Assembly: GCA_043743715.1 (NCBI GenBank)
Contig: JAYTWK010000017.1
Coordinates: 1 to 48,610, forward strand
DNA: 48,610 nt
DNA from: a bacterium
GTDB lineage: Bacteria > Patescibacteriota > Minisyncoccia > Phycocordibacterales > UBA6899
Direction of reading: 5' to 3'
Positions 3,430 through 47,014 of the stretch are shown here, piece after piece. A program made the translations under genes and the position numbers. Numbering within the stretch: position 1 is the first letter of the stretch; every line of letters begins with the position of its first letter. The notes under the pieces are model-generated. The model did no database searches. It had not been told where the DNA came from and worked only from the letters and a program-made list of their open reading frames with translations.

Positions 3430-5316
3430 ATGAATCCCCTTTCCTTCATCTTTCCGACCGCTGAAGCGGCAACCCCGTGCTATAAACTTCTGGCCCCGAT
3501 TGGTACATTTACTTCGACCGGCTGCTATACACTCACGCAATACTTGAACGGAATATACATGACTATCATCGGCATCACCGGCATCCTCGCAGTGGTGATG
3601 ATTGTCATCTGCGGTATTAGGCTCATGACCTCGGCCTCGGCGAGTGGAAAGAGTGAAGCGAAAAGCTGTATTACCAATGCAATCTTTGGAGTGCTCATTG
3701 CTCTCGGCGGATGGCTACTCCTCAATACGGTGAACCCACAGCTCCTCAAGAATGATGCGCGGATTACGGTCATGGCGTCATCGACTCCCCCATCGACAAC
3801 ATTTGGACCTGCAACATCGGGTACTTTCAGCTGGGAAGCCGGGCCCACATGTCCCAAAGTAGACGGGCATATTGTCTCCATTGTTGACCCCGCACAATGC
3901 GGACCAGGAGGCCCCGGCATCTGTTGTCGTTATCTTCCGGTGGCTATCACTGCTCCGGTAGCCTCGCTGCCTCTGACGGCTCCTCCGGCATTCTTCCCGC
4001 CACTTCGTCCGCCTGCAACGACTGGCGACGCAGTATTCAGTACCTCTCGAGCGTCTGCGCGCGTGCGTGAAGGAGCAGGGTCTATTACCATCACGATTCG
4101 CCATATTGCCGGACTCGCTGGCACGGTCGATTATTCAAGCGTCGGCATGACTGCAAACCCTGGAAGTGACTTTACTTCGGTCAGCGGAACCCTATTCTTC
4201 CCTGCCGGACCGTCTGAATTAAGCATCACCATCCCTATCACCAACGACAGCATCGTCGAACCTCGAGAAAACTTCAAGATCGTTCTTTCAAATCCGACTG
4301 GCGGAGTCACACTGAGTGCCAGCAGTCCGCTCGTCATCACCATCATTGATGACGACGTTGCGCCGATTGATGTCACTCCCCCGGTCGTCACATTCACCTT
4401 ACCTATCTCGGGTACCATCGTAAGTAGTGCAACAATTCTGACGAGTTTTACTGTGACCGAAGATACAAATCTGACCGGGGTAGATGTGGGGGTATTCCGT
4501 GCATCGACCGGCGCACAAGTATTCGCCACGAAGGTGTGTTCGACCAACGCGGGAGTCTGCCCTATACTCGGCGGTATATTCACACCCACAGTTTCGAGTG
4601 GAGGATATGATAATGAATACTTCGACATCGTTGCGACCGCTTGTGACCTTGCAAAAAATTGCGGCAAAGCAACCACCACCATTGGGTTCACGGAATCATG
4701 TACCACATCGTCCAGCACTAACTGCTTAATTCTTCCACTAGGCACAGGTGGAACTAGTAGTCAGAGTATCATTACCACATTTGTGAAGTCCGACCCCCCG
4801 CTGGTAATTGGTACAAGATTTGCAGTAAATGCGCACCTCATCAAACTCACCACGCCGACCGGGGGAGGAACATTGTCGATTTCTACAGCGGCACTTCCTT
4901 GGGCTCCGCCGCCAACCTCGGTCCCCCCAGTCTTCTGCAGTACTTCCGCTCCTTCGTGCGGGTATGGCTGCGATTTTTTAAGCTTTCCAGCTGCATGTAA
5001 CCCCCCGCCCCCCGACCCATGTACCCTAAAGGGACTGGTGTGCGCGGCTGGATGTGACGTGGTCATTGCCGCATGCTATGTCCCAGTGCCGGTGGTGGTT
5101 GCAGGAATAGCTGCATTCCCGGGCGACATAAGTGTCACGGCACCGTGCGGCAATGGCGGATCATTCCCCGGCTCGACCAATATGGTCATTACGTTTGGTA
5201 CCACAGGAGACGCAACGACATGCGGATTAAAACCCGGATTTAATTACTACCTGAACGTATTCCCGACCGACGGAAAGCTCCACAACTTTACGATTCAGTA
5301 CAACTGGACTCCGTAA
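3430..5316 (+). CDS. VirB2/TrbC-like pilin N-terminus fused to Calx-beta, Ig-like and Cys/Pro-rich extracellular domains
   Basis: Two hydrophobic helices ending LLNTVNPQLL. Calx-beta motif (VREGAGSITITI...DFTSVSGTLFFPAG...ITNDSIVEPRENF...IIDDD) and DVTPPVV Ig start. Confidence 0.8.
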   Translation: MNPLSFIFPTAEAATPCYKLLAPIGTFTSTGCYTLTQYLNGIYMTIIGITGILAVVMIVICGIRLMTSASASGKSEAKSCITNAIFGVLIALGGWLLLNTVNPQLLKNDARITVMASSTPPSTTFGPATSGTFSWEAGPTCPKVDGHIVSIVDPAQCGPGGPGICCRYLPVAITAPVASLPLTAPPAFFPPLRPPATTGDAVFSTSRASARVREGAGSITITIRHIAGLAGTVDYSSVGMTANPGSDFTSVSGTLFFPAGPSELSITIPITNDSIVEPRENFKIVLSNPTGGVTLSASSPLVITIIDDDVAPIDVTPPVVTFTLPISGTIVSSATILTSFTVTEDTNLTGVDVGVFRASTGAQVFATKVCSTNAGVCPILGGIFTPTVSSGGYDNEYFDIVATACDLAKNCGKATTTIGFTESCTTSSSTNCLILPLGTGGTSSQSIITTFVKSDPPLVIGTRFAVNAHLIKLTTPTGGGTLSISTAALPWAPPPTSVPPVFCSTSAPSCGYGCDFLSFPAACNPPPPDPCTLKGLVCAAGCDVVIAACYVPVPVVVAGIAAFPGDISVTAPCGNGGSFPGSTNMVITFGTTGDATTCGLKPGFNYYLNVFPTDGKLHNFTIQYNWTP

Positions 5317-7894: not shown

Positions 7895-8156
7895 GGCGTG
7901 ATGGTACTACAGAGCTCACCCTTGTGCTATTTGCCGCATCTACTGATTTTGTCTCCACACCTCAAAACCCTTTAAAAATTAACCGCTTTGTGTTACTATC
8001 CCTTTGTTTCAAAGACTTTTTGAAACAAAGGGGAAATTTTAATTTTTTCGCTCCTTTATATAGTTGTTCTATTATATAAAAAATTTCCCTATAGCTGTTT
8101 TGGTAGGTATCAGGGTAAAGTACAGAAACAGTAAAGAACTCAAACAACATCGTAAT

Positions 8157-8214
8157 GCCCCTATAGCTCAGCTGGTAGAGCAGTAGCCTTTTAAGCTAAC
8201 GGTCGCAGGTTCGA
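8157..8214 (+). pseudogene. Truncated tRNA-Lys(TTT) 5' copy, interrupted in the T-loop
   Basis: 58 nt identical to 8401-8458, diverging after GGTTCGA into long hairpins. No acceptor 3' strand. Confidence 0.85.
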
Positions 8215-8400
8215 ATTTTGACTCAGCAAGTGAACTACTTCACTTGCAACAAAATTCGAAGCCGTTCTCCCTTATTTACGAATGATTCTTATCGTGAGTA
8301 AATGGGAAACGGGTACTGCCGCCGTAAGCGGAGAGACCCTGTTGAACTAATCCAAATGAACCTTCCAAAATAGTTTGTACTTTAAAATTCAGCCCATCGT

Positions 8401-8473
8401 GCCCCTATAGCTCAGCTGGTAGAGCAGTAGCCTTTTAAGCTAACGGTCGCAGGTTCGAGCCCTGCTGGGGGCA
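8401..8473 (+). tRNA. tRNA-Lys(TTT), CCA not encoded
   Basis: Acceptor GCCCCTA/TGGGGGC, D-stem GCTC/GAGC, anticodon loop CTTTTAA, T-arm GCAGG-TTCGAGC-CCTGC. Confidence 0.95.
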
Positions 8474-8547
8474 CAATGTGCTGAATTTTTTGATTTGAAA
8501 AGTACCATCAGCGGTAGCCGAGAATCCCTGCTGCTTTTAATTGGATA

Positions 8548-8657
8548 ATTTTTATTCCTTAAATCCCCCACAAATTAAGCCCTACCGTCGCATCCACCTT
8601 CCGCTCCAAAGGCTCCGCATACGTCGTCAGCACCACCTCACATGTCGCACCAACAAC
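8548..8657 (-). repeat. Orphan 3'-end copy 1 of the DUF296 gene
   Basis: Encodes VVGATCEVVLTTYAEPLERKVDATVGLNLWGI*, matching the end of 15766-16179. Confidence 0.92.
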
Positions 8658-8843
8658 TCACACATACACACTGCACTGAAGATGTCGCCTCGAGAATTTG
8701 CCCAAATCCATAAACTCGATACAATAAAAGCATTAGAGGAGAGTGTGCAATGAAAGGGGTACCTTACAAAGTGTCTCATTGGGGGGTACCCCCATATACA
8801 TCATTCATACTTTAGGGGGACCTATTTTATAGACTTGTGACAC

Positions 8844-9566
8844 ATGAACGCAGAATCACCAACTGGATACACTGAAGAAACGGCACGAAAATATACCGAA
8901 GGACAGAAGCAATTTTTTGATGCAGACAAGGTAATTGATAGCCCGACCGTTGCCATGGAGAATGAGGCTCGCTCTATCGCAGAGCAACACGAGATACATA
9001 CAGTTTGTGATATTGGATGCGGCTCGAACTGTTCGTATCTTGAAGGATGGAAGCAAGGTGCGAGGGCAAAGCGAATTATTGGCGTTGAGCCTTCGCCACA
9101 CATGCGCGAAATTCTTGAAAAAGACCTGAGTGACAGCGAAAATGGTTCTTGCGTGGAGGTTACTTCAGGAGACTGGGAACACATCCCACTACCCGATGGA
9201 TCTGTTGACCTGGCCGTCTCACGATTTTCGCTTCATTACCTAGAGAACATTAGCACTGGCTATGCTGAGCTGGCTCGTATCTTACGAACTGGCGGATTTG
9301 CAGTCATCTCGCTCCCGCACCCTGAGTACTGCGCTCGTGAACTAGCAAAAAATGGTATTGAGCCCAAAGAGGGGGTACCGATGTCGGTAGAGGTTTTTGA
9401 CACGACACTCAACTACTTCTACCACGAGGTTGGGGCGTACCTTGGCGACTCACTTGCACAAAACGGACTCGCCCTTGTGAAGCAATCTGAATTTAATTGG
9501 GGAACAAAAGACGAATCGGACAAGAATATCCCCAACACACTACTTTTTGTACTTGAGAAGATATAA
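8844..9566 (+). CDS. Class I SAM-dependent methyltransferase
   Basis: VCDIGCG, IGVEPS, IPLPDGSVDLAVSRFSLHY and RILRTGG motifs. Confidence 0.9.
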   Translation: MNAESPTGYTEETARKYTEGQKQFFDADKVIDSPTVAMENEARSIAEQHEIHTVCDIGCGSNCSYLEGWKQGARAKRIIGVEPSPHMREILEKDLSDSENGSCVEVTSGDWEHIPLPDGSVDLAVSRFSLHYLENISTGYAELARILRTGGFAVISLPHPEYCARELAKNGIEPKEGVPMSVEVFDTTLNYFYHEVGAYLGDSLAQNGLALVKQSEFNWGTKDESDKNIPNTLLFVLEKI

Positions 9567-9692
9567 CCTCTCGGCAAGTTCCAGTTTTCTTTCCTCAAAA
9601 CCATCAAGGTGTACCGCGGCGGTAGCCGAGAGTCCCTGCCAGTCTGAAGTTTAGCCTCAAGCAGAGCTCATGATCCGTGATACAATCATCAA

Positions 9693-10349
9693 ATGAGAAA
9701 GATTGGTTCAGGCGTACAGTTCAATGTTTACGATATCGGCAATGGGAGAGTGAGGAAAATACCAACCTCATTTATTCAGAAACTCATTACTTTTCACAAG
9801 ATAGCCCCTAAATACCATCTGCTTTTTCACCCGATACACAATATCAAAACAGCAATTGGATCAGGTAAGATGACAATATCTTCAATCGAGCAATTACAGA
9901 AGAATCTCGTTAATATTGACCCGAGTCTAATCGGTAACCCGCTAATCATGGCAAAACATGAATATGAGCAGGATAAAGTTCTATCATTTGCAGATAAGAT
10001 CCGGGCTGCTAATCCAGAGGGCCAGAAAAAACTGGTCGATGGCTATGTCGACCATATTCTCTCTTGCTGGGATTATGGATTCAGTGACACCGTCTTTAAC
10101 TTCATGGTAAACAGCGGACTCACAAACAGCGGCGACGTGTTGCTTATTGATCTTGGTGAGTTAACTTGGAGCAAAGACGAGGTGGCCGATCTTGTTCGAG
10201 AAAAGCACTGGGAAAAACGCAGTTCATATAACAAACTCTGGGACATTGGCCTGAAAAAATACTTGCAACAACAGTTCAATAAAAAAATCACCCTCACGAG
10301 TCTTAATCAGCATTGGAATAGCATGAATGTAAGTTCGCTACATACATAA
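9693..10349 (+). CDS. Hypothetical protein, probable protein-kinase-like fold
   Basis: KIGSGVQFNVYD Gly-loop, VRK lysine, D..FN...N and LLIDLGE (DFG-like) motifs. Confidence 0.6.
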   Translation: MRKIGSGVQFNVYDIGNGRVRKIPTSFIQKLITFHKIAPKYHLLFHPIHNIKTAIGSGKMTISSIEQLQKNLVNIDPSLIGNPLIMAKHEYEQDKVLSFADKIRAANPEGQKKLVDGYVDHILSCWDYGFSDTVFNFMVNSGLTNSGDVLLIDLGELTWSKDEVADLVREKHWEKRSSYNKLWDIGLKKYLQQQFNKKITLTSLNQHWNSMNVSSLHT

Positions 10350-10372
10350 TTTCTAGATAAAGCGGTTGTCTT

Positions 10373-10523
10373 ATTTTTATTCCTTAAATCCCCCACAAAT
10401 TAAGCCCTACCGCCGCATCCATCTTCCGCTCCAAAGGCTCCGCATACGTCGTCAGCACCACCTCACATGTAGCCCCCACCACTAAACTCCTTACATGCCC
10501 ACCGAACGCATTGAATTCCTCGT
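10373..10523 (-). repeat. Orphan 3'-end copy 2 of the DUF296 gene
   Basis: Encodes EEFNAFGGHVRSLVVGATCEVVLTTYAEPLERKMDAAVGLNLWGI*. Confidence 0.92.
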
Positions 10524-10649
10524 TTCAACATAGGAGCAATTGCATTTCCCAAGTGGGGAATACTTGCGTGTTGTTTTTTGAGCGCCTGATATACTGAAAT
10601 AAGGATTTACAAATCATTTATCACATTTATAAAAGTATTTATATAATTT

Positions 10650-11240
10650 ATGTCAATTCAACCACCTGTAGGTAAGTTTTTTGTATTTTCGTGCTTTATC
10701 GGTCTTGTCGCCGCACTTGATGTGTACTTTCAGAATACACTCTCCACAAACCCCAACATGGGCTGGCTGGGAGCAACATGGGTTGTCTTCATAGCATGGG
10801 CACTATATTTTATTTCGGGAGCAAAGCTTTCACGAATGCATAAGAATTTTTTTGCACTTTTGGGGGGAATTATTCTTGCTGTTGCTACTATCAAAATAGG
10901 AGGTGCTTTGAGCGAACTATGGAAGGGTGGGGTACTCGAAGCATGGGCGTTTCCTATTGTTATCTTTTTTGACGCGGTGATCATTATCATGCTTGAGCTT
11001 ACTGATTGGTTTGAACTTGCTCCAGCATACTTTTTTGGATTTGCGGGTTATTTTGGGTTCTTTTTTGGAAACTTCGACGGGCAAACATCAGACCCATATA
11101 TGGCAGCTGTACACCATCTTATTCTTTCGGTGATCGGACTCATTCTTGGATGGATCACTGCTAGTGGGCGAATAAAAATACTGCTCTCGATGGGAGTCCC
11201 GATTGGAAATCAACAAACTGTTTACGATAAAGAATCGTAG
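10650..11240 (+). CDS. Multi-pass membrane protein, DUF1097-like
   Basis: About 6 hydrophobic helices, WVVFIAWALYF motif, PAYFFGFAGYF and IGLILGW. Confidence 0.7.
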   Translation: MSIQPPVGKFFVFSCFIGLVAALDVYFQNTLSTNPNMGWLGATWVVFIAWALYFISGAKLSRMHKNFFALLGGIILAVATIKIGGALSELWKGGVLEAWAFPIVIFFDAVIIIMLELTDWFELAPAYFFGFAGYFGFFFGNFDGQTSDPYMAAVHHLILSVIGLILGWITASGRIKILLSMGVPIGNQQTVYDKES

Positions 11241-11286
11241 CATAAAGCACACATGGCACTCCCCCGAGTGCCATGTGTGCTTTATG
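11241..11286. terminator. Bidirectional terminator (21-bp perfect stem)
   Basis: CATAAAGCACACATGGCACTC-CCCC-GAGTGCCATGTGTGCTTTATG between convergent genes. Confidence 0.88.
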
Positions 11287-12496
11287 TCTCATGAACTATG
11301 TGACCCTCCCCCTTCCCCACAAAGCCGAGATTTTCGCACGTTCGCTCAATATCAAGATCCCAGGACACCGTACTGACAATCTCCCCAATGTCATAATGAT
11401 GAAGTGACTCTTCTGGACCCTTGAAACGTAACACATAGATATCTTGAAATGACTGGTGGTCGCAAGGTCTCCACCATTGACCTCCTTTGTAATTATCATA
11501 AGATCTCCCTTCAAGAAATTGTGTTGCCTTATCATTATTGAGAGGATATACGCCTAGTTGTTGGAAGGCATTGAGTATTTCTTTTGTTCCTGAATAAGCA
11601 TACCCTGCATAACCAGTAGGCAGTTCTCCGTTATATCGCTCGCGAAATTTTTGTACAAAATTTCGAGCAGAAGGGATATGTGCTTCAAGACCCCAGTAAA
11701 AATTTACACCCCAATACATTCCCACAAGTGATTCAAGTGGGACCATGTCGACAATCGTAACCTCAGAAATTGTGTGCAAAATACTCATTTCTTTTTTTAG
11801 CCCGCGACTATTCGCTGCTTGAATAAAACTTGCTTGATCCCAACCGAGATTAGTGACCGAAAGCACATCTGGTTTCAGCGCGAGAATTGCATCAATATAT
11901 TGAGCAAATACTTCAGGCCCAGAGCCGAGTGGAACCCTTATAATGCTGAGCACATTACCACCATGCTTATGAACAACACTTACAAGCGATGATTCGATTT
12001 CATATCCCCATTGATAGTCAGCAACAATAAGCACCCATCGCTTACCAAGGTGCTCGACCCCCCAGCGACCGAGTAGTTGGGCAGTCATATGCGGACTCAG
12101 TCCTTCATGAAAAGTATATGGCCCTAAATGCTCAGCTGTTGTGATGGTGTTTGATTGACTCACCGAAATAAACGGAATCCCATGCGCGCGAGCAAGTCGA
12201 TTTGTTTCGAGCTGTGATGAAGCAGAAATTGAACCTGCGATGATATCTGTTTTTTCTTCGAGGAATTCGCTCATCATCATTTTTGCCATCACCGTATCCA
12301 TTTGGTCATCTTTCGCCAGAAAACTTATTGAATGTCCTGCGATCCCACCCAGCGCATTGATCTCTTCGACAGCAAGAACGGCTCCTTTTATTTGGTTCTC
12401 AACGATTTGTGTATATGGCCCAGTAAAACCGCAAGTAAAGCCAAATTTAATCGGTAGTAAATCCTTATTGATATGTGTTGTGCTGAATCTATCCAT
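11282..12496 (-). CDS. Branched-chain-amino-acid-type substrate-binding fold protein without signal peptide
   Basis: IKFG...TGPY, GAVLAVEEINALGGIAG, ADYQWG and RPCDHQ motifs. The N-terminus is hydrophilic. Confidence 0.85.
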   Translation of the reverse strand: MDRFSTTHINKDLLPIKFGFTCGFTGPYTQIVENQIKGAVLAVEEINALGGIAGHSISFLAKDDQMDTVMAKMMMSEFLEEKTDIIAGSISASSQLETNRLARAHGIPFISVSQSNTITTAEHLGPYTFHEGLSPHMTAQLLGRWGVEHLGKRWVLIVADYQWGYEIESSLVSVVHKHGGNVLSIIRVPLGSGPEVFAQYIDAILALKPDVLSVTNLGWDQASFIQAANSRGLKKEMSILHTISEVTIVDMVPLESLVGMYWGVNFYWGLEAHIPSARNFVQKFRERYNGELPTGYAGYAYSGTKEILNAFQQLGVYPLNNDKATQFLEGRSYDNYKGGQWWRPCDHQSFQDIYVLRFKGPEESLHHYDIGEIVSTVSWDLDIERTCENLGFVGKGEGHIVHET

Positions 12497-12580
12497 TCAC
12501 AGGAAGCCTATTTAATGAGTGAGGAAGGATGGCTTATTCCCCCAGAAACATTTATAGAACATTATGCATGAAATCTCGTA

Positions 12581-13039
12581 CTAGTGAGAACGCTCGTAGC
12601 GTCCCATTAATACTGTTTTTTCAATAATATGCCCTTCCATACTCTTAAGTAACTCCTCTTTACTCGCATTATCCGGAAGTGTGAGTACTGTATCAAGTGC
12701 GTAGAGCAGAAAAAAATAACGGTGTTCACGATCAGGGGGGCATGGACCCATATACCCTTTTGTGCCTGCAGTATTAAGCCCAGTGTTTCCTGCCGGATTC
12801 TGTCCCTCAGGAATCGTTGTCGTGAGTGGAGGAATATTCCACACAATCCAGTGATCCCATTCTCCCTCCATTCGTACGCTCGTCGGTACATCTGGGTCAT
12901 TCACAATTAAAGTGAGGCTTTTTGCCTCTTGAGGGACGCCACTAATTGTAAGTGGGGGAATAACATCCCTGCCATCACAGGTATAAAGTGACGGAATCAA
13001 TTCATTTTCTTCAAACACCGTGCTTTCAAGCTTCATCAT
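12581..13039 (-). CDS. YbhB/YbcL family (PEBP/Raf kinase inhibitor-like) protein
   Basis: YTCDG, DPDVP, HWIVWNIP and YMGPCPPDREHRYFF motifs. Confidence 0.93.
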   Translation of the reverse strand: MMKLESTVFEENELIPSLYTCDGRDVIPPLTISGVPQEAKSLTLIVNDPDVPTSVRMEGEWDHWIVWNIPPLTTTIPEGQNPAGNTGLNTAGTKGYMGPCPPDREHRYFFLLYALDTVLTLPDNASKEELLKSMEGHIIEKTVLMGRYERSH

Positions 13040-13089
13040 GTATGTAAAATAAATTATATGGGACGCTTATAGTATACTGTGAAGTATAT

Positions 13090-15282
13090 ATGATAGCTCT
13101 GAATGAAGATACACAGACAACGGAAGGCGCTGATTTGCTTTTGCTGCTCAATGATCTTTCCCGCGGATTGAATATCGCAGATCAAAATAGTAACGCAGCA
13201 CTCATTGAGGCATCAAACCAACTTATCTCGAAATTACCCATTGATGCGGTGGCGATATGGACACTCGAGCACGACACAAATTTTATGAAGATAGAAACTG
13301 CAACCGGGCTGTCTGAACGGTTTGTTCGTTTTTTCAACAAGACCGACAGAATTGCCTTGGGAAAAGGTCTTGTTGGAGGGGTCATACAGAAAAGACAATC
13401 ATTGTTCATCAATAAACTTGCAGAATATAAAAACATCGGTACCGCAAGATGGAATGAGATGCTCAATGAAGAAGGAATCGTTTCAGTGCTTGCTGCCCCC
13501 ATTCTTGCACACGAAGTTTCGATTGGAGTGCTCACCATTTATTACAAAAAAGAACATTCTTTTAGTGATTCCGAGCGATTGTTTTTTGAAATACTTGCAA
13601 ATCAACTTGCGGTAATTATTTCAAGTAACCATCAGTATCAACAACTCGCACAAAATGCGCGCATGCTTGAAAATCAAGTCGAGAACATGACAAATATTCA
13701 GAAAACAACACAAGTTCTCAATCGATATCTTCATGACTCACTTGATGTGTCGCTGTCGTATGTGGCGGATTATTTTACGAAAAAGTTTAACGTAAAGAGT
13801 ATTTCTGTTTTCAAAAGCGACGATCATGCGATACGGCTTTCACTTGTCGCATCACATGGGTTGTCAGAATATATGCGTGGATATTTTGAATCACATGTTC
13901 CGAACACTAACACCGCGACATTTCTTGGGAGTGCCTACCATGCGAAAGAGCCGAAAATTTCTGCTCGCGTATTCACCGACGAACGGATTTCAAAAGATTG
14001 GGTAATTGCAATGGCAATGGAAAAGCAAGTTGCAATGGGAGCATTTCCGCTAATTGTTCAAGGAAATTCCATCGGAGTACTTGTAACAACATATGATCAC
14101 TTACATGTGTTTAGTAGTGAAGAACTAACTATCCTAAACACTTTTGCGCAGTTTTTTGCTGTTGCATTAGAAAATGCAAGTACTTTTGAAAGCCTTGCTT
14201 CAGAGCGCCGAAAAATTAAATCGATGGTTGATAGTATTGAGGATGGATTGCTCGTTTACGACATGAATGGAAACATTATTGATGTAAACCCGCGTGCGAT
14301 GAAACTTTTTCAGATCACGAACGAGAATTTCTTAGGGAAAAAACCCTCTGAAATCATGGACGATCCAAGCCTCCAACCCTTACAGCAGGTTTCGCAGCTC
14401 ACACTCATTGAGGGTGAGACAAGGGAGCTTAATTTTGACTATCCACTCAATATATATCTCCATGTGACACATGTTTCACTTCGTGATGAAGATGGCGTTT
14501 CAATAGGATCAATGCGGGTACTTCATGATTTTACCCAAGAAAGAGTTGTAGAACGTTTGAAGTCAAATTTTGTAGCTACAGCCTCTCATCAACTTCGAAC
14601 CCCTCTGACGGGAATTAAGTGGGGACTACTCGCGCTCACAGAAGGGCACAAAGATAATTTTAGCGTCGAGCAAAAAAGGCTCCTTGAGCGAATTATTTTT
14701 GCAAATAACAGTGTCATCGGCCTTATTAATGACATTTTAAATGTCGGGAGAATTGAGGAGGGGAAGTTTGAATATACATTTTCACTCGGTACTATTGCTG
14801 ATATTGTCGATGAACTCTTGGCGAATTTTCAAATGAATATTGAGGGGCAAGAATTGCATATCGAAAAGGAGTATGGGGGACATGACATGCCACTCGTTAT
14901 GAGAGATAGAGAAAAATTCTCACTCGCTATTCGCAATCTCCTGGATAATGCAATTAAATATACAAAAAAAGGCGGGACCATAACAATTAAAACCTGGGTG
15001 GATCAGAATTTTTTGAAACTAAGTGTCCATGATACCGGGATTGGAATACCTGAGAAAGATATCCCGTTCTTGTTTAATAAATTTTATCGTGCACCAAACG
15101 CTGTTCGACTTCAAACTGAGGGTTCCGGGCTAGGGCTTTTCTTTACAAAAAGCATCGTTGATAAGCACAATGGCGTCTTATCAGTAGAAAGTCATGAGGG
15201 AGCAGGATCAACGTTTATTATCACTCTCCCATTAGATCGTTCGCAGATGCCAGGAAGCACTCCCAGAGAGTGCCTGCAGTGA
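13090..15282 (+). CDS. Soluble GAF-GAF-PAS sensor histidine kinase
   Basis: Two GAF-like repeats, PAS (IEDGLLVYD...VNPRA), ASHQLRTPL H-box, NLLDNAIKYT, DTGIGI and GSGLGL. No transmembrane segment. Confidence 0.93.
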   Translation: MIALNEDTQTTEGADLLLLLNDLSRGLNIADQNSNAALIEASNQLISKLPIDAVAIWTLEHDTNFMKIETATGLSERFVRFFNKTDRIALGKGLVGGVIQKRQSLFINKLAEYKNIGTARWNEMLNEEGIVSVLAAPILAHEVSIGVLTIYYKKEHSFSDSERLFFEILANQLAVIISSNHQYQQLAQNARMLENQVENMTNIQKTTQVLNRYLHDSLDVSLSYVADYFTKKFNVKSISVFKSDDHAIRLSLVASHGLSEYMRGYFESHVPNTNTATFLGSAYHAKEPKISARVFTDERISKDWVIAMAMEKQVAMGAFPLIVQGNSIGVLVTTYDHLHVFSSEELTILNTFAQFFAVALENASTFESLASERRKIKSMVDSIEDGLLVYDMNGNIIDVNPRAMKLFQITNENFLGKKPSEIMDDPSLQPLQQVSQLTLIEGETRELNFDYPLNIYLHVTHVSLRDEDGVSIGSMRVLHDFTQERVVERLKSNFVATASHQLRTPLTGIKWGLLALTEGHKDNFSVEQKRLLERIIFANNSVIGLINDILNVGRIEEGKFEYTFSLGTIADIVDELLANFQMNIEGQELHIEKEYGGHDMPLVMRDREKFSLAIRNLLDNAIKYTKKGGTITIKTWVDQNFLKLSVHDTGIGIPEKDIPFLFNKFYRAPNAVRLQTEGSGLGLFFTKSIVDKHNGVLSVESHEGAGSTFIITLPLDRSQMPGSTPRECLQ

Positions 15283-15648
15283 TTAGAGACCGAGGATACT
15301 GTTCACTTTGGCTATGATTTCGCTGGGCAACACATCAGATTTTACAAAATAGTAAACTGCACCAAGCGACATTGCACGATCAATGCTCTCTTGACCACCA
15401 AGATTTGAAACAATGATAACGGGTATCTGTGCTAATCCCTTCTGAGATTTTAATTTTTCGAGCACTTCAAAACCGTTAATCCCAGGCAGAATCAGATCAA
15501 GCAATATAATATCAGGGAGTACCTCTGGAATTTTTTTGAGCGCTTCTTCTCCAGAAGTCACGTGTGTCAACTCAAAACCTGAATTGATAATACTCGTAGA
15601 GATAAGATCCCCGAGAAAAGCATCATCTTCAACAAGAACGATTTTCAT
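15283..15648 (-). CDS. Single-domain response regulator
   Basis: MKIVLVEDD, LLDLILPGING and IIVSN motifs. Start placed at the ATG at 15648. Confidence 0.92.
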   Translation of the reverse strand: MKIVLVEDDAFLGDLISTSIINSGFELTHVTSGEEALKKIPEVLPDIILLDLILPGINGFEVLEKLKSQKGLAQIPVIIVSNLGGQESIDRAMSLGAVYYFVKSDVLPSEIIAKVNSILGL

Positions 15649-15765
15649 ATTATTTGTCCATTCTACAGCGTCGAGCCGGATAATGACAATGCGTAACAAT
15701 TATCTGAAGATAATGCTCGAAATATATTATTTTTTACTCCTACAATTTCTTGTATAGAAATCCAA

Positions 15766-16179
15766 TTACCAGAGATTTAGTCCAACTTTTTCATCAAATT
15801 TCCTCTCCAAAGGCTCCGCATACGTCGTCAGCACTACCTCACACGTCGCACCAACAACCAAACTTTTCACATGCCCACCGAACGCATTGAATTCCTCGTC
15901 CGCAATAGTGGTATGCATATGAATGACCGGTTTCTCTTCAAACACTGCAATATTCCCAACTCCCCCAGTGATCTCAAACTCACCTAAAAACTCTTTCCAA
16001 TGATATTCTTTCTTATGTAGTGAGTAAAAGCCGAGCGATACCTTGGTCGTTGCGCCAATTGCCGTAAATGACCCTGCAACAATATGGTTATTAGTGCAAA
16101 ATTGGACCAAACAGGAGACAAGTTCCTCTCCTGTGCTAAATTTTATGAGATATCCGCTCTCAGTTTTGCGTGTTTGCAT
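15766..16179 (-). CDS. PPC/DUF296 domain protein
   Basis: GEEL...FTAIGA, GNIA, HMH and GGHV...ATCEV motifs. Confidence 0.92.
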   Translation of the reverse strand: MQTRKTESGYLIKFSTGEELVSCLVQFCTNNHIVAGSFTAIGATTKVSLGFYSLHKKEYHWKEFLGEFEITGGVGNIAVFEEKPVIHMHTTIADEEFNAFGGHVKSLVVGATCEVVLTTYAEPLERKFDEKVGLNLW

Positions 16180-20715: not shown

Positions 20716-21029
20716 CGCCTCCCTTATTCGAGATCGTCTTCGGAGGCTTTGCGACGACGGGTCCCATCTGGAGCAGACGGGTTCCCTAGCCCGCTCGTCT
20801 TTTCCTTACAGGAACTGTCCACTCATTGGCATTTTTACTTCGCTTCGCTTGTAAAACTGCTCAATGAGTCTTGCGACAGCGGGTCCCATCTGCAGCAGAT
20901 GGGTTCCCTACAAGTCACTCGTCTTCCCTTACAGGGACTGTACACCTTTTGGAGATTTAAGAAAATCTCTCAAAAGGTCTTGCGACGACGGGTCCCATCT
21001 GCAGCAGATGGGTTCCCTAGCCCGTCGTC
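20716..21029. repeat. Three tandem multi-hairpin units (REP/BIME-like or cis-regulatory RNA)
   Basis: TTGCGAC..CGGGTCCCATCTG-x-AGCAGA(T/C)GGGTTCCCTA... at 20749, 20871 and 20980, each preceded by a second hairpin of different sequence. Confidence 0.85.
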
Positions 21030-23465: not shown

Positions 23466-25145
23466 ATGACTCATTTTGGCGACGATGCAACAAAAAAGCG
23501 GTTCGATGACATGCGTGCGAAGGAGGCCGAGTCGCTCGCGCAGATTCTCTCAAGTAGGTACGACATGCCGTATGTCGACCTTGCGCGTGTCATTATAAAC
23601 AACACCGCACTGCGTCTCATCACCGAGGAAGTAGCGCGTGATGCCGGTGTCGTTGTATTTGCCATAGACCAGAAGACGGTGAGCATAGCAGCCCAGACAC
23701 CACATAATCCAAAATTGCCGAATGTGCTGCAGGAGCTCGATCGTCAAGGTTATACTCCCGTCATCTACCTTGCTTCTGAGTTCAGTATTGCGAAAGCATG
23801 GGAAGTCTATAAGGAGGTCTCAAACGCCGTCGCCGAGGTGGGTGGTGTGATGAGTGTTTCTGAGGAGACAATGCAAAAATATGTTACGACCATCAAAACT
23901 ATCGGCGATGTAAAAGCCGTGGTTGAAAGTGCGATTAGTTCCGGAGATCCTCACGCACTCTCGACCGTCGTCGAGATCATCATGGGTGGTGCAGTGGCAA
24001 CCAATGTTTCGGACGTACATATCGAACCGGAAAAAGATATTGTTCGGGTGCGATATCGTCTCGACGGTATTCTTCAAGATGTTGTTGATATCCAGCTCTC
24101 AAACTATAAGCGCGTGCTCTCGCGCATTAAGCTGCTCGCCGGAGTGAAGCTTAATCTTGTACACGAAGCGCAAGACGGCCGCTTCACTATCAAGATCAGT
24201 GGTGTTGATGTCGAAGTACGTACTTCGATTCTGCCCGCAGCGTATGCTGAATCGGTTGTGATGCGTATCCTTAATCCGAAATCTATTTCGGTTCCACTCG
24301 AGGAACTCGGTATGGATGAATACTTCTATCAGATAATGGTAGATCAAATCAGCAAACCAAACGGTCTTATTCTTACCACTGGTCCTACAGGTTCAGGAAA
24401 GACCACAACCCTCTATGCCTGCCTTAAAAAACTACGCAGTCCGCAAATAAAAATTATCACCATTGAGGATCCTATCGAATATCACCTCGAGGGTATCTCG
24501 CAGACACAGATTGACCATGAAAAGGGTTACGACTTCAGCCACGGACTCCGCGCCGCTGTGCGCCAAGATCCTGACGTCATCATGGTCGGTGAAATCCGCG
24601 ACGAAGAGACTGCAACTGTTGCCATCGACTCTGCACTTACCGGACACCTTGTGTTCTCTACACTGCATACCAACAATGCTGCTGGTGCCATTCCGCGTTT
24701 AATTGATATTGGTGTGAACCCTAAGATTATCAGTTCGGCACTGAATATCGCCATTGGTCAGCGACTTGTGCGCAGATTATGTAAGTTCTGTAAGGAAGAA
24801 TATCTTCCTGAAGGAAAGGAACTTGAAGCCTATGAACGGGCACTCCCCGATATTAGGAAATTTAGACCACGTGTTGTAATCCCTGAGAAGTTGTGGCGTC
24901 CTGTTGGTTGCGACAAGTGTTCGTTCACTGGATTCAAAGGACGTGTCTCTATCTACGAAGGTATTCTTATGGACCGCGCAGTGGAAGCAATACTTCGCGA
25001 GAACCCCTCGGAACGCGAGATCAAAGAAGCAGCAAAGCCTCAGGGTATCCTTGATATGCGCCAAGATGGATTCGTAAAATGTATGACCGGCATGACCGCG
25101 ATATCTGAAATAGACCGTGCCGTCGGCCTCGATGAAGGACGGTAA
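23466..25145 (+). CDS. Type IV pilus/T2SS assembly ATPase (PilB/GspE family)
   Basis: SDVHIEP, RYRLDG, GPTGSGKTTT, EDPIEY, RQDPDVIMVGEIRD and HTNNA motifs; Cys-pair zinc site. Confidence 0.95.
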   Translation: MTHFGDDATKKRFDDMRAKEAESLAQILSSRYDMPYVDLARVIINNTALRLITEEVARDAGVVVFAIDQKTVSIAAQTPHNPKLPNVLQELDRQGYTPVIYLASEFSIAKAWEVYKEVSNAVAEVGGVMSVSEETMQKYVTTIKTIGDVKAVVESAISSGDPHALSTVVEIIMGGAVATNVSDVHIEPEKDIVRVRYRLDGILQDVVDIQLSNYKRVLSRIKLLAGVKLNLVHEAQDGRFTIKISGVDVEVRTSILPAAYAESVVMRILNPKSISVPLEELGMDEYFYQIMVDQISKPNGLILTTGPTGSGKTTTLYACLKKLRSPQIKIITIEDPIEYHLEGISQTQIDHEKGYDFSHGLRAAVRQDPDVIMVGEIRDEETATVAIDSALTGHLVFSTLHTNNAAGAIPRLIDIGVNPKIISSALNIAIGQRLVRRLCKFCKEEYLPEGKELEAYERALPDIRKFRPRVVIPEKLWRPVGCDKCSFTGFKGRVSIYEGILMDRAVEAILRENPSEREIKEAAKPQGILDMRQDGFVKCMTGMTAISEIDRAVGLDEGR

Positions 25146-45214: not shown

Positions 45215-47014
45215 TTAGCCCTGCGCTGCCTTGAGTTCTTGTTTTGCCTTCGCAATAGCGAGCATTTGAGCGGGGTCGGAGGAAACAATTTGGTCTTCGG
45301 TGTAGGACGCATGCACTTTGATGGCCACATGCTTGAGTCCTGCGAAGAATAGTCCTTCCCCGACGCCGGATTCGAGGAGAAGATATTTTTCTTCATCGGT
45401 GAGATGGAATGTCTGCTGCACGAGGTCGATTGTGGTCGGCGACTGTTTGAGGAGTATCTGAATGGATGAATTGGTGAGAATGGGGAGTCCGTATGGTGAT
45501 CGCAAGAAGTCGTTCACATCCTGGGTGATGGTGGCAATACCAAGGTAATACTTGCGTCCACGTTTTGCGAGTCCAAAGAGGAATGAGGCTGTATCTTCGG
45601 ATTTCATCATCCACCAGGCTTCGTCGACGATAAGGAGACGTTTGCGCAGATTTTCACGTACTGCAGTCCAGATGTGGTGGGTGACGATATAGACGGCGAC
45701 CGGCTTGAGTTCGTCTTCCATGTTGCGGACCGAGAACACAGTGAATCGTTTGGTAATGTCAACGTTGGTTGGATTATTAAGAAATCCCGACCAGGTACCC
45801 TTGGTGTATTTCTCGAGGCGTTGGAGCAGTGATTCGGTCCCGTCCATACCTGAAAGTACGAGTTCAAAGTCCGACAATAGTGGGGGCTCAAGATCCTTGA
45901 AATTGGTCTCGGGGCTGATATCTTTCAAGGCATATGTCTCAGCGATAGCGCGGTCGATGACTGCGTCTTCTTCGGGAGAGAGACCGCCAAGCATGATACG
46001 GAAGAGTCCGACGAGGAAGATGATATTCGAGCGCAAGACGTCGGCACTTGATTCGTCGTCGCGCGCGGCAGGAAGGTCAAACGGATTGATGTGATGCTCT
46101 GAGGTGAGCGAAATATTGAAATATCTTCCACCCGTCGCTTCCGCGAGGAATGCGTACTCCTGCTCGGGGTCAATGACGATGACGTCCGCGTCAAACATCA
46201 GTGTGCGCAAGATTTCGAGTTTGGTGGTATAGGATTTTCCTGAACCGGACACCGCGAAAGTCACCGAGTTGTAGTTGGGCATACCGAAGCGGTCGAAGAG
46301 AATGAGTGAAGCATTGTGGCGGTTAATGCCCCAGAGAATTCCCTTATCAGAAGTAAGGTCGAATGAAACAAACGGGAAGATTGATGACAGCGGCTCAGAA
46401 TTGAGCTTATAGTGCACTCCAAGCTCGTCGGTCATAAGCGGAAGGACGCTGCGATACCCCTGTTCCTGTTGGAAGATTGCCGGTTTTACATACACCAGTT
46501 TTCCGTCGAGAATCGATTTGACCTCACCTTCTACTTTGTCGATATCCGCCTTCTCATTGCCGTAGATAGTAATATAGATACCCACATCAAACAAACGCTC
46601 TTGGGCCTGCATGAGCTTGTCGCGCAATCCTTCGAGGTCTTGATAAGCGATGTCGAGCATTGGGTCGCGCACGAATCCTTTGCGCTCACGCTCATTAATT
46701 TGACTCTGTACTTCGGCTACTTTCTTCTGGAATGTGCGTAATGCAACTTCGGTCTCGACCGGGTGGATCATAATAGAAACATCGTAGACTTTGTCGAGAT
46801 TGATGATTGGAGTGAACCAGTCTTGGGACAAAAATCTCGGGTACGAGATCACAAATAGTGTTCGGAGCATCTTGTCGCCGACAGAAATGGAGTTGCGTTC
46901 GATGCTAATTGCTGCAGGAGCGAGGATGTCCTTCATGTCGAGGTTGGTCGCCTCGTAGATGTCTGCCGGGAGTACTCCGCCGCTTCCGACATCATATGTT
47001 TTTTCGTTTGCCAT
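45215..47014 (-). CDS. VirB4-like ATPase
   Basis: AVSGSGKS Walker A, IDPEQEY, INPFD, LIVDEAW Walker B, RKY and TQD motifs. Confidence 0.92.
   Translation of the reverse strand: MANEKTYDVGSGGVLPADIYEATNLDMKDILAPAAISIERNSISVGDKMLRTLFVISYPRFLSQDWFTPIINLDKVYDVSIMIHPVETEVALRTFQKKVAEVQSQINERERKGFVRDPMLDIAYQDLEGLRDKLMQAQERLFDVGIYITIYGNEKADIDKVEGEVKSILDGKLVYVKPAIFQQEQGYRSVLPLMTDELGVHYKLNSEPLSSIFPFVSFDLTSDKGILWGINRHNASLILFDRFGMPNYNSVTFAVSGSGKSYTTKLEILRTLMFDADVIVIDPEQEYAFLAEATGGRYFNISLTSEHHINPFDLPAARDDESSADVLRSNIIFLVGLFRIMLGGLSPEEDAVIDRAIAETYALKDISPETNFKDLEPPLLSDFELVLSGMDGTESLLQRLEKYTKGTWSGFLNNPTNVDITKRFTVFSVRNMEDELKPVAVYIVTHHIWTAVRENLRKRLLIVDEAWWMMKSEDTASFLFGLAKRGRKYYLGIATITQDVNDFLRSPYGLPILTNSSIQILLKQSPTTIDLVQQTFHLTDEEKYLLLESGVGEGLFFAGLKHVAIKVHASYTEDQIVSSDPAQMLAIAKAKQELKAAQG

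Follow-up and report, generated by a model that had tools for sequence, protein, structure and literature searches.

How did the 3' end of one small gene come to stand three times along a bacterial chromosome, with unrelated genes between the copies? This question is raised by a window of 48,610 nucleotides (nt), by which we mean the whole stretch of DNA that was analysed (contig JAYTWK010000017.1 of assembly GCA_043743715.1), from a member of the Patescibacteriota. The gene in question belongs to the PCC/DUF296 family, is encoded on the minus strand and is convergent with a tRNA-Lys(UUU) gene on the plus strand. A sequence-only reading of this DNA had proposed that unrelated genes were stacked here by successive insertions, each of which brought a new end for the DUF296 gene and pushed the old one outward, and that no integrase was involved. 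Our analysis supported serial insertion with replacement of the gene's 3' end. As to the way in which this took place, we tentatively favor two successive Campbell-type homologous insertions of circular DNA carrying a diverged DUF296 3' fragment, a reading to which we assign a probability of roughly 0.45.

Three copies of the DUF296 gene end

The resident gene matched PF03479 with an E-value of 8e-30 (103.9 bits against a curated cut-off of 25, covering profile positions 3-115 of 117), and its open reading frame (ORF) is complete despite the flanking repeats. Two fragments of its 3' end, termed orphans A and B and corresponding to the final 110-150 nt of the gene, lie between it and the tRNA-Lys gene. 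The copies and the blocks of perfect identity that they share are as follows.

15766-16179, minus strand: resident PCC/DUF296 gene, 137 amino acids (aa), PF03479
10366-10523, minus strand: orphan B, DUF296 residues ~92-137 plus two more codons, stop codon at 10384-10386, with an 11-nt common trailer
8541-8657, minus strand: orphan A, DUF296 residues ~107-137 plus two codons, stop codon at 8559-8561, core at 8604-8633
15805-15834, minus strand: exact 30-nt core in the resident copy, identical to 10429-10458 and to 8604-8633
15869-15899, minus strand: exact 31-nt block of the resident, identical to 10493-10523 at the left edge of orphan B

A repeat search of the window returned a single direct-repeat family with three copies, located at 8541-8658, 10366-10483 (92%) and 15742-15859 (69%) and spaced 1825 and 5376 nt from start to start. 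BLAST of the DUF296 copies against all 57 contigs of the genome aligned orphan A with orphan B at 98% over 98 nt (8548-8645 = 10373-10470), the resident with orphan B at 89% over 100 nt (15800-15899 = 10424-10523), and the resident with orphan A at 95% over 59 nt. No DUF296 3' copy was detected on the other contigs of this 57-contig genome, where only chance matches of 14-19 nt occurred. Repeat search and whole-genome BLAST thus agreed with the earlier observation that the 3' end recurs twice as orphan fragments. By tblastn the orphans corresponded to residues 92-137 (E 3e-21) and 107-137 (E 2e-11) of the DUF296 protein and, as had been noted, they begin at different points within the gene. 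Orphan B has no start codon and carries a stop codon just upstream. Both orphans end in ...VGLNLWGI* and have 11 nt in common past the stop, a shared tail that is indeed unlike the resident tail ...FDEKVGLNLW*.

Cargo between the copies

The accessory blocks that the sequence-only reading had placed between the copies were confirmed by Pfam and contain the following genes.

8658-10365: cargo 1 (1.7 kb), between orphans A and B, two genes and the remnant of a structured element
8844-9566, plus strand: class I S-adenosylmethionine (SAM) methyltransferase (Methyltransf_11, Pfam)
9693-10349, plus strand: ORF of 218 aa without a Pfam, PHROGs or NCBIfam family
10524-15765: cargo 2 (5.2 kb), between orphan B and the resident gene, the five genes below
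10650-11240, plus strand: DUF1097 (Pfam)
11282-12496, minus strand: Peripla_BP_6 binding protein (Pfam)
12581-13039, minus strand: PEBP, YbhB family (Pfam)
13090-15282, plus strand: GAF-PAS histidine kinase (Pfam)
15283-15699, minus strand: response regulator (Pfam)

All five families that had been named for cargo 2 were recovered. For cargo 1 the predicted methyltransferase was found; its neighbor, the 218-aa protein labeled "kinase-like", matched no family, and a protein atlas gave only a lead to YrbL-like, kinase-fold proteins. This protein had no match in 50,697 phage records and weak relatives in only two other genomes. The G+C content of cargo 2 is 41.3%, which places it in the lowest 1.6% of 5.2-kb windows in a genome with a mean of 47.8%, and its composition is foreign. 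Cargo 1, with 44.6%, lies at the 14th percentile. Pfam, PHROGs and NCBIfam revealed no recombinase or other mobility gene among the seven cargo ORFs. A phage or plasmid origin of the cargo was considered and not retained: PHROGs gave only generic methyltransferase and PEBP matches, and NCBIfam gave nothing above its cut-offs.

The orphans carry the ancestral tail

We compared the genome under study (G000) with related genomes (G001 and onward). DUF296 was present in 13 of the 41 genomes searched, G000 included, and extra partial matches occurred in G000 only; the 12 other genomes with the gene had one match each. Among 29 genomes of the family, extra DUF296 matches were likewise restricted to G000.

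The body of the resident gene is typical of its clade, with 84% aa identity to the closest relative (G005), in which polA, holA and gmk are ~90% identical to those of G000. Values per 100 columns between the resident body and G005 were 0.71-0.82, and those for polA, holA and gmk were mostly 0.71-0.89. The last ~13 codons of the resident are atypical and its stop codon comes two residues early. All nine relatives' DUF296 genes compared extend at least two residues past the tryptophan at which the resident stops, and that of G005 ends in ...VGLNLWGL. Among the closest database proteins, 10 of 11 alignments reach the C-terminus; all 10 of these proteins run at least two residues past the tryptophan and seven read ...GLNLWGL. 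The ending of the resident, ...FDEKVGLNLW, is like those seen in more distant proteins (63-64% identity).

The same picture was obtained from nucleotide identities on the two sides of the 30-nt core. In the 64 nt to its left, the resident, orphan B and G005 are pairwise 80-84% identical. To its right, orphan B and G005 share 75%, the resident and G005 60%, and the resident and orphan B 53%. The resident tail is about equally distant from everything with which it was compared (53-64%). Because the orphan tails are typical of the clade and the resident tail is the outlier, the resident is a native body whose tail has been replaced, and the ancestral tail type is found on the orphans. The claim that two successive insertions each gave DUF296 a new 3' end and displaced the old one is therefore supported by the clade-typical orphan tails, the odd resident tail and the low G+C content of cargo 2. 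G002, a relative that carries the genes of cargo 2, was tried as donor of the resident tail and rejected (resident and G002 60% identical to the right of the core; left arm of orphan B and G002 69%).

A variable zone between tRNA-Lys and gmk

The layout of the region in relatives was as follows.

G001, G015 and G011 (distant species, 56-59% aa identity): tRNA-Lys and DUF296 ~107-160 nt apart (tRNA to DUF296 stop), an empty site
G005 (closest): gmk and DUF296, followed by two hypothetical ORFs of 208 and 388 aa and by tRNA-Lys
G019: DUF296 with an ORF of 130 aa towards tRNA-Lys and alanine dehydrogenase towards gmk
G002: the five-gene block of cargo 2 (61-79% aa identity) located 5' of DUF296, between this gene and gmk

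The interval between tRNA-Lys and gmk is thus a variable zone on both sides of DUF296. In G002 the five-gene block has no flanking repeats, and its Peripla_BP_6 binding protein was found in only two of the 41 genomes. Two things had been predicted for relatives, namely varying cargo and DUF296 3' duplications of variable length. The first was observed in layouts that differ by species; the second was seen at none of ten loci, and this genome is so far the only one with stacked gene ends. A near-identical strain with an empty site was not found in scans of metagenome and genome contigs, nor in the two runs that contain the sequence. For closer relatives with genomic context, metagenome-contig scans gave none and then two distant loci, and a genome-contig scan gave no further species.

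Fine structure of the copies

Between the resident and orphan B there are 24 mismatches in the 131 nt up to a common TGG, yet the alignment contains perfect runs of 31 and 30 nt. When 24 mismatches were placed at random, two runs of at least 30 nt arose in 3e-5 of 200,000 trials. Differences between the resident and orphan B flank the perfect blocks on either side, as a Campbell-type exchange would lead one to expect. In both blocks G005 departs from the sequence at 5 of 30 positions, and the blocks are products of recombination rather than of conservation, judging from this alignment. In the 33 nt between the two blocks there are 10 mismatches in 9 of 12 codons, of which eight codons are changed silently and one by a lysine/arginine exchange. 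Such almost exclusively silent differences to the left of the core show that orphan B was once part of a working, well-diverged allele; it is neither a decayed copy of the resident nor an untranslated attP mimic. Orphan A is resident-type in its first 14 nt and B-type, with two mismatches, in the remaining 76 nt, and this make-up indicates that orphan A is itself recombinant.

The 30-nt core stands exactly where the resident and orphan tails part, with identity falling to 53% downstream of it in the sense of the gene. No dyad symmetry of a dif-like or palindromic kind was seen in this core by eye. The sequence-only reading had argued from variable breakpoints that there is no fixed core, and this has to be given up, as the core is exact in all three copies at the switch point. 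A single core alone does not describe the pattern either, given the second block of 31 nt and the recombinant orphan A.

These details also bear on the idea that two or three full-length DUF296 paralogs once stood here, whether through segmental duplication or through recombination of a G002-like with a G005-like arrangement, and that two of them then lost their 5' parts by deletion and acquired the identical blocks by gene conversion. G002 has an intact DUF296 gene at the place of orphan B, on the tRNA side of the five-gene block. The synonymous divergence of orphan B shows it to have been part of a working gene, and identity patches are what conversion between paralogs would leave. This history would however require two independent 5' deletions, each ending just inside the gene, and it leaves unexplained why the atypical tail is on the resident and not on the orphans, while the resident body is as near to G005 as are the neighboring genes. 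There is also no relative with two copies among the 12 other genomes that carry DUF296. We regard paralog decay as improbable.

Soundness of the assembly

Two runs of one study contained 99% of the sampled words of the stretch, and a third run of the same study contained next to none. The two runs, probably derived from the source sample, were used as Logan contigs and unitigs only. Unitigs covered the whole stretch and broke at every repeat, including the 31-nt block. This behavior, together with our own reading of the graph of 31-letter words, which also permits an empty site plus a circle of 1.8 kb or 5.4 kb, and the lower depth (11 against 16) of the unitig between two tRNA copies, would be in line with an assembly artefact in which strain variants of one locus were chained through common repeats. 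We consider such an artefact very improbable. The unique segments had an even depth of 15-17 in both runs, both non-homologous junctions lie inside long unitigs (8616-10402 and 10494-15898), and no variant letters were reported in the DUF296 copies from the contigs of the two runs. The exact repeats are merely 98, 31 and 30 nt long. Repeats of this size are shorter than ordinary reads and than the final word sizes used by assemblers, and longer words or read pairs should suffice to resolve them.

Recombinases and the integrase alternative

In the whole assembly, which is 97.5% complete, there were no matches to PF00589 (tyrosine recombinases) or PF00239 (serine recombinases). A tyrosine recombinase resembling Xer was however present in 39 of 40 relatives, and 35 of those 39 had a single one, of Xer size, a count that also shows additional integrases to be rare in the group. 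Since G000 has none, the assembly must miss at least one recombinase gene that the genome should have, and the absence of an integrase is therefore weak evidence. The statement that no integrase is present thus stands as an observation, for the cargo as well as for the assembly, but carries little weight as an argument. The rve, IS110 and TnpB zinc-ribbon families likewise had no match in the assembly. Y1_Tnp had seven matches at six places, none of them in the window. In the 1.19-Mb genome these IS200-type copies are located at C5:4663, C49:13901, C26:130, C22:10852, C13:2974-3338 and C42:15939. The copy on contig C13 is frameshifted and lies directly behind a tRNA-Ser gene between its own pair of identical hairpins, and is followed by a tRNA-linked element of the type described below. 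No link was found between these transposases and the DUF296 copies.

The main rival to homologous integration builds on this gap in the assembly. It supposes tandem integrase islands whose attP sites mimic the 3' end of DUF296, with integrases that were later deleted or that act in trans from unassembled DNA, as for cis-mobilisable elements. Such islands would readily account for an exact 30-nt core in all three copies at precisely the point of tail divergence, for an ORF restored by each element, and for a layout that equals a tandem array with displaced target fragments; and an assembly without even the Xer-like gene of 39 of 40 relatives says little about a missing integrase. In an island survey, protein-coding genes were the site of 43.4% of 1.75 million mapped islands, and tandem arrays are dealt with as a matter of routine (PMC12424338). 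Several findings point the other way. Neither the assembly nor the cargo ORFs contain a PF00589 or PF00239 match, and the single Xer-size recombinase in 35 of the 39 genus genomes with a match makes integrase islands look rare. One fixed crossover site would not be expected to yield a second block of 31 nt or a recombinant orphan A, and an attP arm would not be expected to show the protein-level constraint that is seen in the left arm of orphan B. In addition, the five genes occur in G002 without flanking repeats. On balance we find integrase islands rather unlikely here.

Possible uptake of DNA by transformation

The genome encodes RecA (E 8e-137), DprA (E 5e-65) and ComEC (E 1e-46), and a homologous recombination route is therefore feasible. 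The PilB-type ATPase that had been placed in the window is present (23466-25145, plus strand). It is a PilB/T2SSE ATPase, and the window further encodes a T4SS-pilin protein with Calx-beta domain (3430-5316, plus strand) and a TraG-type P-loop ATPase (45215-47014, minus strand); these pilus- or conjugation-like parts could bear on DNA exchange.

The mechanism originally put forward, homology-anchored uptake of foreign DNA, for example by transformation, would here mean linear DNA with a homology anchor at the DUF296 end and an illegitimate joint at the other. ComEC, DprA, RecA and the PilB-type ATPase would provide the means, and the left ends of the orphans differ (residue ~92 against ~107) with no homology beyond them. 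One homologous and one illegitimate joint is also how homology-facilitated illegitimate recombination is defined in the text cited here (PMC3240628). Replacement by a linear strand would nevertheless substitute or delete recipient sequence and could not use the same stretch twice, and by itself it should not leave a duplicated gene end. The left edge of orphan B, moreover, is a perfect 31-nt match to the resident and looks homologous rather than illegitimate. Homology-anchored uptake therefore holds as far as the machinery and the feasibility of the route are concerned, but one-ended linear uptake alone does not duplicate recipient sequence, and we see little chance that it produced this locus. 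Duplicating the gene end would appear to need a circular intermediate or a second copy of the chromosome.

Proposed single-crossover homologous integration

We return to Campbell-type homologous integration as our preferred reading. Each cargo lies between direct repeats of the gene end, and the ORF is whole. With a copy of the gene end on either side of each cargo, the layout calls for one reciprocal exchange with a circle that carries this gene end; a site-specific recombinase or homologous recombination could perform it. The clustered mismatches, the two perfect runs of ~30 nt and the recombinant orphan A form the pattern of exchange at identity blocks. By our own estimate, alleles that are ~84% alike over 411 nt should have a longest identical run of ~24 nt, and a crossover at a block of 30 nt therefore fits homologous recombination. 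Short clustered mosaic patches have been described for natural transformation between diverged Bacillus genomes in the portion of that study cited here (PMC13344027). The five-gene block stands as ordinary chromosomal genes beside DUF296 in G002, which fits the capture of a chromosomal segment better than a dedicated island.

According to this proposal, the interval from tRNA-Lys to gmk, which varies within this genus of Candidatus Lloydbacteria, would have grown in this genome by two single-crossover insertions. The incoming molecule would in each case have been a DNA circle with cargo and a fragment of a DUF296 allele reaching from mid-gene to just past the stop codon. A RecA-type exchange within a perfectly identical stretch would join the gene body to the incoming tail, and the earlier tail would stay behind as an orphan on the far side of the cargo. 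In the first event the methyltransferase and the 218-aa gene would have arrived on a fragment almost identical to the native tail, leaving orphan A beside tRNA-Lys. In the second, the five-gene sensor and binding-protein block would have arrived on a much more diverged fragment, leaving orphan B and giving the gene its present odd ending. We observe three copies and their mosaic make-up directly; the circular form, the order of the events, and homologous recombination rather than a site-specific recombinase as the joiner are what we infer.

A number of points weigh against this proposal. A single reciprocal crossover should leave one identity block where we find two, and an additional exchange or conversion must be assumed. 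The 30-nt core, being present in all three copies at the switch point, also looks like an att core. With at least one expected recombinase gene missing from the assembly, the apparent lack of an integrase offers the proposal little help. No relative shows an intermediate state or an orphan, as none of the ten loci contains a second copy of any part of its own DUF296 gene. A circle, an empty site or a joint that skips the cargo was not found in the two runs, which consist of contigs only and in this respect speak neither for nor against it. Transformation imports linear single strands, which leaves the formation and entry of a circle unexplained.

A more general form of the proposal might be called recombinase-free cassette stacking, and we put it forward with considerable doubt. 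In a lineage with a Xer-type enzyme as its only tyrosine recombinase, the end of a small conserved gene could serve as a portable homology anchor. Circles from related chromosomes would enter by RecA-dependent single crossover at identity blocks of ~30 nt and could exit by the same route. Species would thereby exchange cargo, with a small piece of the gene end being replaced at every round, and this replacement would account for the mosaic of two allele types.

The tRNA side and a tRNA-linked element

On its outer side the locus is bordered by tRNA-Lys and several structured features.

8401-8474, plus strand: tRNA-Lys(UUU) (ARAGORN; Rfam 68.9 bits)
8156-8214, plus strand: truncated tRNA-Lys, 100% identical to the first 59 nt of the intact gene and interrupted within the T-loop
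8243-8347, plus strand: tRNA-linked structured element, a three-way junction of ~100 nt (nhmmer E 3e-30; covariance model E 1e-17, this copy being in the training set)
9596-9645: remnant of ~45 nt, similar to the 3' half of the tRNA-linked element and located between the two genes of cargo 1 (repeat family D9)
20911-20996, minus strand: further copy of the tRNA-linked element (covariance model E 7e-4)
Other contigs of G000: copies of the tRNA-linked element at C13:26516, C40:7449, C40:11420 (minus strand), C9:4266, C4:24583, C39:60045 and C24:9

The truncated tRNA-Lys is located 244 nt upstream of the intact gene, and the sequence-only reading had begun its locus there (position 8157) without noting this copy. 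The sequence upstream of the truncated copy is homologous to that flanking the intact tRNA-Lys of relatives. The tRNA duplication may be absent from part of the population, going by the unitig depth of 11 against 16. An inverted repeat of 22 nt (8384-8405 and 8468-8489) extends the acceptor stem of the intact tRNA-Lys. In G011 (L020, 5930-6262) an older tRNA-Lys copy lies upstream of the working one, with an insertion of ~95 nt in the D-loop and a decayed T-arm, followed by a structured element; this nested layout is the same as in the window.

The tRNA-linked element forms a genome-wide family behind tRNA genes, with eight nhmmer matches at E <1e-6. For most copies that were inspected, the closing stem reproduces the T-stem of the neighboring tRNA and is followed by a copy of that tRNA's acceptor 3' strand, and the element often occurs in tandem with variant middle hairpins. 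Compensatory changes in 11 of 14 predicted pairs among 16 hand-picked copies lean towards a structured element, the alignment being hand-chosen. It had no match in Rfam, and a literature search showed nothing relevant to it among the papers listed.

Two stretches of ~40 nt, at 8497-8535 just behind tRNA-Lys and at 9596-9645, are similar to the 3' half of the element and have a motif like the T-stem of tRNA-Lys at their end. The covariance model gave a weak match at 9555-9642 (E 0.25) and none at 8497-8535. Near 9596-9645 a stretch of 21 nt is 95% identical to 8511-8531, just behind tRNA-Lys, which hints, though without significance by itself, at a former position of part of cargo 1 next to a tRNA-Lys trailer. 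Elsewhere in the genome, C30:7228-7253 (a contig end with a tRNA-Ser GCT trailer) and C24:1-30 carry the same sequence, and the two contigs are therefore probably adjacent.

Comparison with known systems

Members of the Candidate Phyla Radiation have tiny genomes with few recognisable mobile elements, and how they gain accessory genes is poorly known. The locus represents an ordered, dated record of two gains at one gene end, in which the displaced ends show which allele came from where. If homologous recombination alone was responsible, it would reveal an island-like route of growth that is invisible to island finders requiring an integrase, a requirement that is part of the TIGER/Islander definition in the portion of the source cited (PMC12424338). 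Should an integrase turn up, the locus would be no more than a decayed tandem island.

The cited portion of that survey also describes the closest likeness in layout, that is tandem islands at the 3' ends of tRNA, tmRNA or protein-coding genes (PMC12424338). In both cases cargo lies between directly repeated copies of the target end, the gene is kept intact by a new end that comes with the element, older target fragments are pushed outward, and an exact core is present in all copies. The locus differs in that neither cargo nor assembly contains an integrase (with the Xer-like gene also missing from the latter), in its small cargos (1.7 and 5.2 kb) of ordinary chromosomal-type genes, and in its second identity block, its mosaic of two alleles and the coding-type arm of orphan B.

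Integron cassette arrays resemble it as stacks of small units, mostly of one or a few genes, at one site. Here, by contrast, there is no IntI-type recombinase (no PF00589 match) and each unit ends in a copy of a gene end and not in an attC-like site. In homology-facilitated illegitimate recombination the usual outcome is replacement or insertion without duplication of the anchor, whereas here the anchor is duplicated. The two have in common a homologous anchor beside foreign DNA and the presence of competence machinery, as far as the cited text describes that process (PMC3240628). Transformation mosaics share with the locus their short clustered patches of donor and recipient type, in the portion of the study referred to above (PMC13344027).

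There remains Campbell integration, known from suicide plasmids and some RecA-dependent insertions. It duplicates the homology carried by the circle and gives reciprocal chimeras, and RecA and an identity block suffice for it. The locus departs from it in having two identity blocks, which need more than one exchange, and no circle was seen in the contig-only runs. In its layout the locus corresponds to tandem islands at a gene's 3' end without the defining integrase, and in function it fits Campbell-type homologous integration. It is a real and well-preserved case of a known mode of genome growth.

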